Source: Escherichia coli (GTDB taxonomy: Bacteria > Pseudomonadota > Gammaproteobacteria > Enterobacterales > Enterobacteriaceae). Taken from it: a DNA stretch of 64,000 nt. The position numbers and the translations under genes were made by a program. Positions 13,887-14,850 of this stretch are shown piece by piece. Each line of letters begins with the position of its first letter. Positions within the stretch are counted from its first letter, which is position 1. Location: the NCBI RefSeq assembly GCF_013122565.1, contig NZ_CP053258.1, one strand, 5' to 3'. The notes below the pieces were generated by a model. The model saw nothing but the letters and a program-made list of their open reading frames with translations, searched no databases and was not told the origin of the DNA.

Positions 13887-14157
13887 TTTCACTTTCTTGA
13901 CTTTTATCCCTTCACAAGCGGTCGATAAATAGCTTCCTCGGCCGCCCTATCATCACATATCGCATTTTCTTTTAATCAACGCTTGAAGGTGTTGTACGCT
14001 TAGCATCTTCACTATCTTCGCCACCTCCTTGCTGAATTTTATACAAATGAGCAATTTTTGATAGTTCAAAATTTGATTAAGGCTAGGATGAAAACAAATA
14101 AACTGCACTACCTAACGTCCAACGTAATGTTCTCAATAAATTATAAAGGAGAAGATC

Positions 14158-14739
14158 ATGACGATATATAATAATAATATAGGAACTCAAAATACAAAAA
14201 CACTGGAGCAATTTCAGAATGACCTGGTTAAAGCAGATAAAAAATTTGCAAATTCATCAAAATTAAACGCAGTTATTTATAAAAAGATTGATGGCTTTAC
14301 AAATCTTTTGAAAGATCTTATTCATTTCATCACGCATGGGAAAGTCGAGTTTAATTCGCAGCGAGTATCTAAACTCATGGCAGAAGTAACCTCTTTCGAG
14401 TCCAATATTGATGGAACCCCCAAAGATATAAATTTTATTTCTCAAAATGATTATTTACGCCAAACTGTATCCATCAGACAAGATGGGCTAGGCACAAAAA
14501 TAATATTCAGTGTAGAGGAAACCCATTTTAATATAGACCATGGCGTTTTTTTACACGGAAAAAAATGGAGTGAAACAAGATCGCTTCCTGAAGAATTAAA
14601 TATGGCTATTGTTGTTGAAAACCTTAGAAAATTGACCACACAGTTAAACAAAGCCGAGCGACACGAAGTAGAAAGAGAGTATAAAGAATATAAACTGGTA
14701 CAAAGTGCAAAACTGAATATTTTGTATAACCCGGAATAA
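14158..14739 (+). CDS. hypothetical protein, AT-rich, no recognisable domain
   Basis: 193-aa ORF with strong RBS aaggag 7 nt upstream of ATG; sits in an AT-rich stretch between yjcB and ssb. Confidence 0.6.
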   Translation: MTIYNNNIGTQNTKTLEQFQNDLVKADKKFANSSKLNAVIYKKIDGFTNLLKDLIHFITHGKVEFNSQRVSKLMAEVTSFESNIDGTPKDINFISQNDYLRQTVSIRQDGLGTKIIFSVEETHFNIDHGVFLHGKKWSETRSLPEELNMAIVVENLRKLTTQLNKAERHEVEREYKEYKLVQSAKLNILYNPE

Positions 14740-14850
14740 TAAAATAATGAGAGGAACAATCCTTGACTATTTCAGGAGCCGAAATTCATTTTCGACTCCT
14801 GTACGCATATGTTTCGCGTTAAAAGATCTCAATACAAAAGATGCATATCC

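Follow-up and report, generated by a model that had tools for sequence, protein, structure and literature searches.

A one-gene AT-rich interval between yjcB and ssb of Escherichia coli, a candidate accessory cassette at an integration hotspot

Only 98 bp separate ssb from yjcB in Escherichia coli K-12 MG1655. In the window analyzed here, a 64,000-nucleotide stretch of the E. coli contig NZ_CP053258.1, their place is taken by a 964-bp insert (positions 13887-14850) with a single 193-codon open reading frame (ORF), raising the questions of whether this ORF is a gene, how it came to lie there and what it might do. The initial annotation had expected only a short spacer in K-12, and the comparison with MG1655 bore this out. 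The window matches K-12 at ~98.2% identity as far as 13887, directly after yjcB (13605-13886, plus strand, 93 aa; annotated by RefSeq in the relative loci L001-L003), and K-12 homology restarts at the stop codon of ssb (14851-15387, minus strand, 178 aa). The breakpoints of the homology are exactly the stop codons of yjcB and ssb, and the K-12 terminator is lost too, the whole spacer being replaced by the AT-rich segment.

The AT-richness described in the initial annotation was evident in the ORF (GC 0.326) and in the interval as a whole (0.342), compared with 0.502 for the window. Along the sequence, the sliding GC content stayed at 0.29-0.35 over 13900-14800 and reached 0.45-0.60 in the flanks. 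Elsewhere in the window, the AT-rich kilobases at 20-21 kb and 30-31 kb lie inside a region (14900-39000) over whose full length other E. coli genomes align, and are therefore not inserts. Two long AT-rich ORFs at 6-7 kb and 39-40 kb are presumably the K-12 genes yjcF and yjbI.

The ORF extends from an ATG at 14158 to 14739 on the plus strand, as first read from the sequence. It follows a 271-nt non-coding leader (13887-14157, plus strand), which carries a Shine-Dalgarno sequence, AAGGAG, at 14146-14151, 6 nt (aagatc) before the ATG; the 7-nt spacing given earlier is the same distance under another counting convention. The encoded protein of 193 aa has a mass of 22.3 kDa, a pI of 7.9 and the Asn/Lys/Ile-rich composition claimed for it (K 9.8%, L 9.3%, N 9.3%, E 8.3%, I 7.8%). 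Its maximum Kyte-Doolittle mean over 19 residues is 0.45, indicating that it has no transmembrane segment, and no signal peptide was found. Three antisense ORFs of 51, 60 and 102 aa in the interval were discarded, their frames not being kept in the relative locus L002.

Megablast mapping placed the gene in 22 of 5,426 complete E. coli genomes (~0.4%), with which a sensitive blastn search agreed; 4,945 of the genomes have the K-12-type spacer. The gene, which had been described as an orphan absent from K-12, is missing from 99.6% of the complete genomes. Each carrier holds a single copy, always between yjcB and ssb and with the same junctions, and the order pdeC-yjcB-orf-ssb-uvrA was found in every recovered contig long enough to show the flanks. 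Outside E. coli, no relatives were detected among 1.84 billion representative proteins (phmmer) or 5.8 billion clusters, a profile search included. The gene was absent from 50,697 phage and 72,556 plasmid records (tblastn), and a peptide-pattern scan of 100,044 GTDB species representatives gave 62 pattern matches, none of which was confirmed. Wider homologue searches returned the same E. coli family or nothing, and the gene is annotated only as 'hypothetical protein'.

The initial annotation had recognized no motif in the protein and had proposed blastp-type searches and structure prediction, which likewise yielded no family and no fold match. The best Pfam match, Viral_env_E26 (E = 0.2), was not significant, NCBIfam gave zero matches, and neither of these two collections provided a DNA-binding, enzymatic or partner-binding motif. 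The best PHROGs matches (E about 0.01-0.04) were to families of unknown function and, like the best match among PDB sequences (E = 0.034), not significant. Rfam had no match on either strand of 13400-15500. AlphaFold2 models built with 6 and 31 sequences had mean pLDDT values of 48.5 and 47.7. Despite this low confidence, their secondary structure was concordant: the core is predicted to comprise two or three helices, followed by a 4-5-strand antiparallel sheet and a helix. Foldseek found nothing in the PDB below E = 0.07, with TM scores of at most 0.22; the CapZ-like top matches were set aside. At E < 0.001, its AFDB50 matches were the family's own E. coli entries only.

Several observations point to a protein-coding gene. 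Shuffling the mononucleotides of the interval 5,000 times gave longest stop-free runs with a mean of 71 codons and a maximum of 168, where the real sequence has 199; none of the shuffles reached 193 codons. The recovered sequences fall into three divergent allele classes, A, B and C, of which class A includes the window allele. The Shine-Dalgarno sequence (AAGGAG in classes A and B, AAGGAA in class C), the following 6 nt and an ATG or GTG start occupy the same alignment position in all three. Loss of the intact frame in relatives, and presence of the gene in all E. coli including K-12, had been named as refutations, and neither was seen. The frame was intact in every class A sequence examined: the 193 codons are kept in the seven class A loci sequenced, and none of the 12 other class A protein variants aligned is truncated (192-193 aa).

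Selection differs along the protein. In the conserved core (codons 46-158; 14293-14631), which has 79 invariant columns in an alignment of 31 sequences, dN/dS between allele classes is 0.28-0.39 and synonymous changes are in excess (binomial p = 0.0015-0.013), these being small counts of 24-40 substitutions from non-independent pairs. Within class A, 8 synonymous and 12 non-synonymous segregating codons (pN/pS 0.39, p = 0.036) point the same way. The N-terminal region (codons 1-45; 14158-14292; pLDDT below 50) is hypervariable, with dN of 0.43-0.50 and dN/dS of 1.3-1.8 between classes, not significantly above 1. It contains 0 synonymous and 5 non-synonymous segregating codons in class A, its nucleotide divergence between classes reaches 33-38% over 14183-14287, and in the window allele it includes an (AAT)3 Asn run. 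By these comparative measures, the ORF is a gene and not noise, its core is under purifying selection, and its N-terminus evolves without constraint.

The C-terminal helix (codons 159-193 plus stop; 14632-14739) is present in class A only. Classes B and C share a common -1 frameshift, after which their proteins end in ...NLPHS* and stops pile up in the former C-terminal coding region. The core dN/dS between B and C is nevertheless 0.28, indicating that selection went on after the truncation; the alignments show the last helix to be dispensable. One class B copy carries an IS1 insertion. Class C has, in the 5' coding region at the position homologous to the hypervariable N-terminal codons, a perfect (TTCAA)n tract with n = 2-17, and the frame is open only if n = 2 mod 3. 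By this rule, putative ON and OFF variants exist on otherwise identical alleles: two of them, with n = 11 and n = 3, do not differ at any of the remaining 477 nt, and one with n = 10 differs by 1 nt, some of the contigs being short-read metagenome assemblies. At least 11 contigs have out-of-frame alleles. Scanning metagenomes for the flank of the repeat gave 7 loci, of which 6 lacked the gene and were chance matches. The perfect coding-region tract expected of a simple-sequence-repeat contingency locus is absent from the window allele, which has 0 TTCAA units, and present in its class C relatives.

Taken at face value, the shared frameshift with its later stops, the out-of-frame class C alleles and the IS1 insertion are what would be expected if the interval were left over from an island or prophage edge and in decay, with a useless ORF being lost by frameshift, slippage, IS insertion and replacement by a short spacer. 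The rarity of the gene and the lack of homologues and of a confident fold would also fit. However, decay does not account for a constrained core, which B and C still show after losing the C-terminus, for full-length frames throughout class A in 33% GC DNA, where shuffling never produced one, or for a Shine-Dalgarno sequence and start position kept in all classes. Nor does the interval have DNA similarity to any other island at this site, among them the neighbouring Avs4/AbiGi and metabolic islands of which it might have been a remnant. We therefore regard decay as unlikely and a selected gene as the better reading.

Such a gene appears to have resided in the species for long. Synonymous divergence between the allele classes is 0.18-0.30 in the ORF and 0.04-0.15 in uvrA, ssb, yjcB and pdeC, an excess of 2-3-fold only, measured over ~70 synonymous sites of a gene with an extreme composition; it suggests a gene that is old in the species and not a recent import. 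The edges of the cassette behave differently from its ORF. While the ORF diverges by 12-38% between classes, the leader diverges by 1.3-2.7%, and hardly varies at all over its first ~150-180 nt (2/147 differences, compared with 14/69.7 synonymous differences in the ORF; Fisher p = 3e-6). The pattern is consistent with old alleles whose cassette edges have been homogenised, and we propose that recombination in the flanking core genes left near-identical edges around a very divergent ORF. The cassette would have entered the species once, from an AT-rich source, and would since have been passed between lineages, or lost from them, by homologous recombination in those flanking genes.

Autonomous movement found no support. 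No transposase, integrase or recombinase was identified in the insert by ORF, Pfam, NCBIfam and PHROG searches, and terminal inverted or direct repeats and target-site duplications were limited to short, chance-level repeats. A 10-nt imperfect direct repeat (13896/14762, spacing 866) might have marked a target-site duplication, but this was rejected: the 98-nt remainder that it would leave did not align to the K-12 spacer better than shuffled sequence did, nor did the 5,426 genomes include an 'empty' version. These genomes and the phage and plasmid records likewise contained no second site, multiple copies or plasmid or phage location. With no mobility gene, terminal repeats or second copy, the reading of the cassette as a mobile element was rejected. 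The horizontal acquisition claimed initially is plausible from composition and patchy distribution; however, no collection searched contained a donor or homologue, and no mobility signature was seen.

An orphan with these properties might also be a de novo or very young gene of marginal function that arose from AT-rich non-coding DNA inside Escherichia, as the empty searches of proteins, clusters and species representatives, the low AlphaFold confidence and the unconstrained N-terminus would suggest. Yet a 193-residue product with the same helix and strand order in two independent models, and 79 invariant residues maintained at a dS of 0.18-0.30 between classes, argue against this. A homologous non-coding precursor was found neither at the site in K-12, whose spacer aligns no better than shuffles, nor elsewhere, and a GC content of 33% against 50% in the genome argues for a foreign source. 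A de novo origin appears very improbable.

How the gene may be expressed can be considered from its surroundings. No sigma-70-like site upstream of the ORF reached the scan threshold. A GC-rich 8-bp hairpin in the leader (13918-13945) lacks a U-tract, and a structured RNA there was unsupported (fold z = -0.97). No recognisable yjcB terminator was found in the leader, making read-through from yjcB possible; transcription may start from a weak promoter of the gene's own or come from such read-through. The leader also includes TCGATAAATA at 13922-13931, which matches 9 of 10 positions of an H-NS site consensus; the same site reads TCGATGAATA in the relative loci L001 and L002. The initial annotation had suggested H-NS silencing, and repression by H-NS is predicted to be probable, as for other genes of 33% GC, with the AT-richness and this one match in its favour. 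On the other side of the ORF, the conserved 3' spacer (14740-14850), which is kept between allele classes, has its main hairpin at 14773-14801 (CAGGAGCCGAAA...TTTCGACTCCTG). Its minus strand forms three hairpins (-35 kcal/mol, z = -4.4) that none of 200 shuffles equalled, and its plus strand folds with z = -2.5. Although no canonical U-tract terminator was found in it, its folding suggests that the spacer probably terminates the orphan on the plus strand and ssb on the minus strand, standing in for the bidirectional terminator of K-12.

These features bear on the possibility that the cassette is functional without a role concerning phages or mobile elements, for instance through a regulator or adaptor of YjcB or PdeC, an orphan immunity or anti-toxin-like protein, or an effect of the cassette on 3'-end formation of ssb or yjcB. 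The gene is co-oriented with yjcB with no recognisable terminator between them, the cassette exchanges the K-12 bidirectional terminator for a region giving ssb a strongly folding 3' end, and the cassette edges are better conserved than the ORF. Metabolic cargo at the same hotspot and the lack of a match to any defence model are further points in its favour. The protein, however, has none of the DNA-binding, enzymatic or partner-binding motifs that such roles might involve, and carriers show no change in the neighbour genes. Hypervariability of the N-terminus together with ON/OFF switching by a repeat is, moreover, typical of contingency loci under fluctuating selection and not of housekeeping adaptors. 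We consider a role of this kind quite unlikely.

The reading that we favour, and hold to be fairly probable, is that the orphan is a real, selected, non-autonomous hotspot cargo gene. The interval would then be a one-gene accessory cassette with a soluble 22-kDa product, located at the integration hotspot that E. coli has between yjcB and ssb. As to function, we suggest, tentatively and with considerable doubt, that the protein confers a benefit under certain conditions and carries a cost, its most likely role being in conflict with phages or other mobile DNA, because of the location at a defence-island hotspot, the hypervariable N-terminus and the putative class C (TTCAA)n frame switch. The location is weak evidence for defence, since metabolic cargo is found there also; the gap coincides with a defence hotspot, and no defence gene adjoins the orphan. 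PADLOC had no family at E <= 1 for the class A and class C proteins, and neither a PHROG match, a fold assignment nor a partner gene linked the orphan to defence. A more specific version, in which the orphan is an unrecognised single-gene anti-phage or anti-plasmid factor whose variable N-terminus sets target specificity and whose expression in class C is bet-hedged by slipped-strand switching of the (TTCAA)n tract, seems improbable. Were it true, E. coli would have a first clear contingency locus based on simple sequence repeats, and a hotspot that surveys score as empty would conceal a new defence family. Should the tract switch at high frequency, slipped-strand phase variation would be added to the E. 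coli repertoire, and if none of this holds, the gene is one more E. coli ORFan 'hypothetical protein'. A cassette of ~1 kb with natural ON, OFF and truncated alleles offers a short, testable candidate for a conflict-related function.

We then compared the cassette with known systems. H-NS-silenced xenogeneic ORFan genes of enterobacteria are an established concept, and the orphan resembles them as a lineage-restricted gene without homologues with 33% GC in a 50% GC genome, showing both their AT content (GC 0.326 vs 0.502) and their patchy distribution (0.4%). It differs from recent imports of this kind in its allele divergence, which suggests long residence in the species. Like SPI-4 (siiABCDEF), presumably also AT-rich, it is foreign-looking DNA between ssb and yjcB. 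SPI-4 is located between these genes in Salmonella (PMC12607715). An island of ~24 kb that specifies a type I secretion system and a giant adhesin, it has no sequence relation to the orphan, for which protein searches found nothing outside E. coli.

The closest comparison by location is with the islands of hotspot #39, the yjcB/ssb hotspot, occupied in 38 of 1,292 genomes (Hochhauser et al. 2023, PMC10121019, S1 Table row 39). The GInt / Tn6571-family islands and the 18-kb 'yjcB-ssb defence island' with Detocs and a dGTPase (PMC11728103) share with the cassette the same gap, a rare and patchy distribution and the empty state of K-12; the other occupants that we found were an AbiGi + Avs4 island and a metabolic island. 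The hotspot islands, however, span 10-20 kb and carry recombinases and recognisable defence systems, whereas the cassette, one gene in 964 bp, lacks a mobility gene and shares no DNA similarity with them. They insert near the ssb end and keep the K-12 spacer (in L012, the spacer matches to query position 207), whereas the cassette replaces it. As Hochhauser et al. 2023 (PMC10121019) treat an island as 'empty' unless it has more than three genes, the cassette itself would be scored so, suggesting that surveys using this rule miss small cargo, which can be a selected, long-lived gene.

Finally, class C resembles the opa genes of Neisseria, which, as Murphy et al. 1989 are cited in PMC4272514, have a CTCTT pentamer tract in the coding region: class C likewise has a perfect pentanucleotide tract, in its 5' coding region, whose copy number sets the frame. 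Unlike opa, the class A window allele has no tract, and the orphan product has no signal peptide or transmembrane segment and is therefore not an obvious surface antigen. Phase variation in E. coli, as two papers describe it, operates by DNA inversion and Dam methylation, in contrast to the putative slipped-strand switch of the class C tract.

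The stop codons of yjcB (13886) and ssb (14851, minus strand) are separated by 964 bp in the window (13887-14850). In K-12 MG1655 the gap measures 98 bp, in line with the short spacer given in the initial annotation, and contains a GC-rich hairpin with a run of T residues after it, which we take to be the known bidirectional terminator. Since homology to K-12 (~98.2% on either side) ends exactly at both stop codons, the K-12 spacer was replaced rather than interrupted. The insert encodes a 193-aa protein (14158-14739, plus strand; WP_171459980.1 / QJU25935.1) with an ATG start, preceded at a spacing of 6 nt by the near-consensus Shine-Dalgarno sequence AAGGAG (14146-14151) that had been described. 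The GC content is 0.326 for the ORF and 0.342 for the interval, compared with 0.502 across the whole window, confirming the reported AT-rich ORF. None of 5,000 shuffles gave a frame as long (longest, 168 codons), so a frame of this length is not a chance product at such a composition. Antisense ORFs were rejected as genes, being not conserved. The protein is hydrophilic (GRAVY -0.57) and abundant in K, L, N, E and I, in keeping with its description as Asn/Lys/Ile-rich, and a peak 19-residue hydropathy of 0.45 excludes a transmembrane segment, also as initially proposed. Two further AT-rich ORFs of the window (GC about 0.32-0.35), at 5573-6865 (plus strand, 430 aa) and 38697-40277 (minus strand, 526 aa), are presumably the K-12 genes yjcF and yjbI; judging by their translations, the products look like pentapeptide-repeat proteins.

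The gene is rare and confined to one site. Megablast with the whole interval and sensitive blastn with the ORF recovered the same 22 of 5,426 complete E. coli genomes; every carrier has a single, chromosomal copy between yjcB and ssb. The short spacer of K-12 type is found in 4,945 genomes, and ~460 are arranged otherwise, with neither this spacer nor the orphan cassette. Every recovered contig long enough to show the flanks has the order pdeC-yjcB-orf-ssb-uvrA. Protein searches of 5.8 billion clusters (single sequence and 31-sequence profile) and of 1.84 billion representatives by full HMMER matched its own family alone, every member labelled as an E. coli 'hypothetical protein'. No homologues were found by tblastn in 50,697 phage and 72,556 plasmid records, and a peptide-pattern scan of one genome per species (100,044 species) yielded no confirmed match. 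The homology searches and presence/absence mapping proposed in the initial annotation thus upheld its view of an accessory orphan missing from K-12. Separately, 24 kb of core genes in the window (14900-39000, uvrA to ubiC region) reached a top identity of merely 98.0% among the 5,426 RefSeq complete genomes, which leaves the window lineage without a close relative in that set.

No match to the orphan was found in Pfam, NCBIfam, PHROG, PADLOC, PDB or Rfam, consistent with the motif-free protein first described. Structure prediction, also proposed there, gave two AlphaFold2 models of low confidence (pLDDT 48.5 and 47.7) that share one succession of elements, in which three helices lead into an antiparallel sheet of four or five strands and then into one or two helices; Foldseek returned no meaningful match. 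The cassette lacks a recombinase and terminal repeats, and no carrier genome has a second copy. An imperfect 10-nt direct repeat (13896-13905, CTTGACTTTT; 14762-14771, CTTGACTATT) has a spacing of exactly 866 bp, equal to 964 minus the 98-bp K-12 spacer. We rejected this pair as meaningful and treat its spacing as coincidence, because the 98-nt remainder that it would leave bears no relation to the K-12 spacer and was never seen alone.

The gap itself is a known integration site, listed as row 39 among the hotspots tabulated by Hochhauser, Millman and Sorek (2023), where it was found in 1,292 genomes, occupied in 38 of them, lacked a tRNA and had cargo described as GInt (Tn6571-family) islands. 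Hotspots with three or fewer genes were counted as empty in that study, so the orphan cassette is too small to register there. In ST399-complex strains the gap is filled by an 18-kb Detocs and dGTPase island (PMC11728103), and in Salmonella it is SPI-4 that separates ssb from yjcB (PMC12607715). Among complete genomes, we found a defence island with an AbiGi-family antitoxin and Avs4 in strain SCEC020007, and a metabolic island with an MFS transporter, a LacI regulator, DHDPS-family and FAH-family genes and a C4-dicarboxylate transporter in strain A25; the cassette has no DNA similarity to either.

The orphan occurs as three allele classes. Class A (193 aa, ATG, AAGGAG) comprises the window, 06-00048 and loci L014-L020; class B (158 aa, GTG, AAGGAG) comprises S51, GDSC2227PM and most complete-genome carriers, the latter assigned by ~87% identity to the window; class C (158-183 aa, GTG, AAGGAA) comprises N3 and metagenome and isolate contigs. 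A -1 frameshift common to classes B and C makes the protein end in ...NLPHS* and takes away the last predicted helix. The junctions with yjcB and ssb are identical in all three, which argues for a single origin of the cassette. In strain GPEC1446, IS1A is inserted close to the class B start (L010:4323-5020) and the annotated ORF is shortened to 148 aa; this inactivation or rearrangement of the gene arose independently.

Divergence from the window allele is 0-5% in the core flanks, 1.3-2.7% in the first 150 nt of the insert, 33-38% at 14183-14287 and 12-14% in the remaining ORF, falling back to a few percent past 14738. By Nei-Gojobori counts and binomial tests, with small counts and non-independent pairs, dN/dS in the core of the protein (aa 46-158) was 0.39 for A-B, 0.31 for A-C and 0.28 for B-C (synonymous excess, p = 0.013, 0.0015 and 0.005). 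As B and C are both truncated, the last value indicates that the truncated protein stayed constrained. The N-terminus (aa 1-45; dN 0.43-0.50, dN/dS 1.3-1.8, no significant departure from 1) is either free of constraint or diversifying. Segregating codons in class A, compared over seven loci, number 8 synonymous and 12 non-synonymous (pN/pS 0.39, p = 0.036), of which 0 and 5, respectively, lie in the N-terminus. Synonymous divergence between classes is 0.18-0.30, versus 0.04-0.15 in uvrA, ssb, yjcB and pdeC of the same strains, and we infer that the alleles are old within E. coli. The leader (13887-14068) is almost invariant between classes whose ORFs diverge by 12-38% (2/147 differences versus 14/69.7 at ORF synonymous sites, p = 3e-6). 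Recombination may keep homogenising the near-identical cassette edges while the divergent centre resists. Alternatively, strong constraint would account for the invariance of the leader, in which we found no special RNA fold (z = -0.97), Rfam match or promoter-like site.

No sigma-70-like site upstream of the ORF passed the scan, and no canonical terminator was found 3' of yjcB; the orphan could be transcribed by read-through from yjcB or from a weak or activated promoter. The last 114 nt of the cassette, conserved between classes, form a strong fold on the ssb strand (z = -4.4) and a moderate one on the plus strand (z = -2.5), and probably supply terminators that replace those lost with the K-12 spacer. 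The composition and an H-NS-like motif, TCGATAAATA (13922-13931), are the only pointers to the putative H-NS silencing initially put forward. Horizontal acquisition, proposed alongside it, may account for the insert.

The best-supported reading takes the orphan for cargo of a known integration hotspot: a single gene, under selection and non-autonomous. On this reading, the cassette has been in E. coli for a long time and is exchanged through homology of its flanks. A conflict-related, conditionally costly role is our leading guess, although an improbable one. As hotspot cargo and as an ORFan, the gene falls under known types; its main attractions are the ease of testing the cassette and alleles that resemble a repeat switch.

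These belong to class C, where a perfect (TTCAA)11.8 tract detected by Tandem Repeats Finder (L004:4014-4072) lies inside the coding region, at a position related to 14158-14292 of the window, and is translated as QFNSI repeats. Tracts of this unit are also carried by L008 and L021-L031; the class A allele of the window has none. Counted between fixed anchors in DNA, some of it from metagenomic contigs, the unit number n is 2, 3, 4, 7, 10 or 11, and values of 5, 8, 14 and 17 follow from proteins that are 163, 168, 178 and 183 aa long (overall, 2-17). The frame is open solely at n = 2 mod 3; at n = 3, 4, 7 and 10 it stops after 43-53 codons, and on many contigs with out-of-frame alleles gene callers report a 105-aa downstream fragment. 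Alleles with n = 11 and n = 3 are identical over the 477 nt outside the tract, and n = 10 differs by one base; such ON and OFF lengths on otherwise identical alleles indicate that the tract changes far faster than point mutation. Phase variation in E. coli is described in two published accounts as inversion- and methylation-based, whereas the class C tract looks, by its anatomy, like a slipped-strand contingency locus, which would be unusual for this species.
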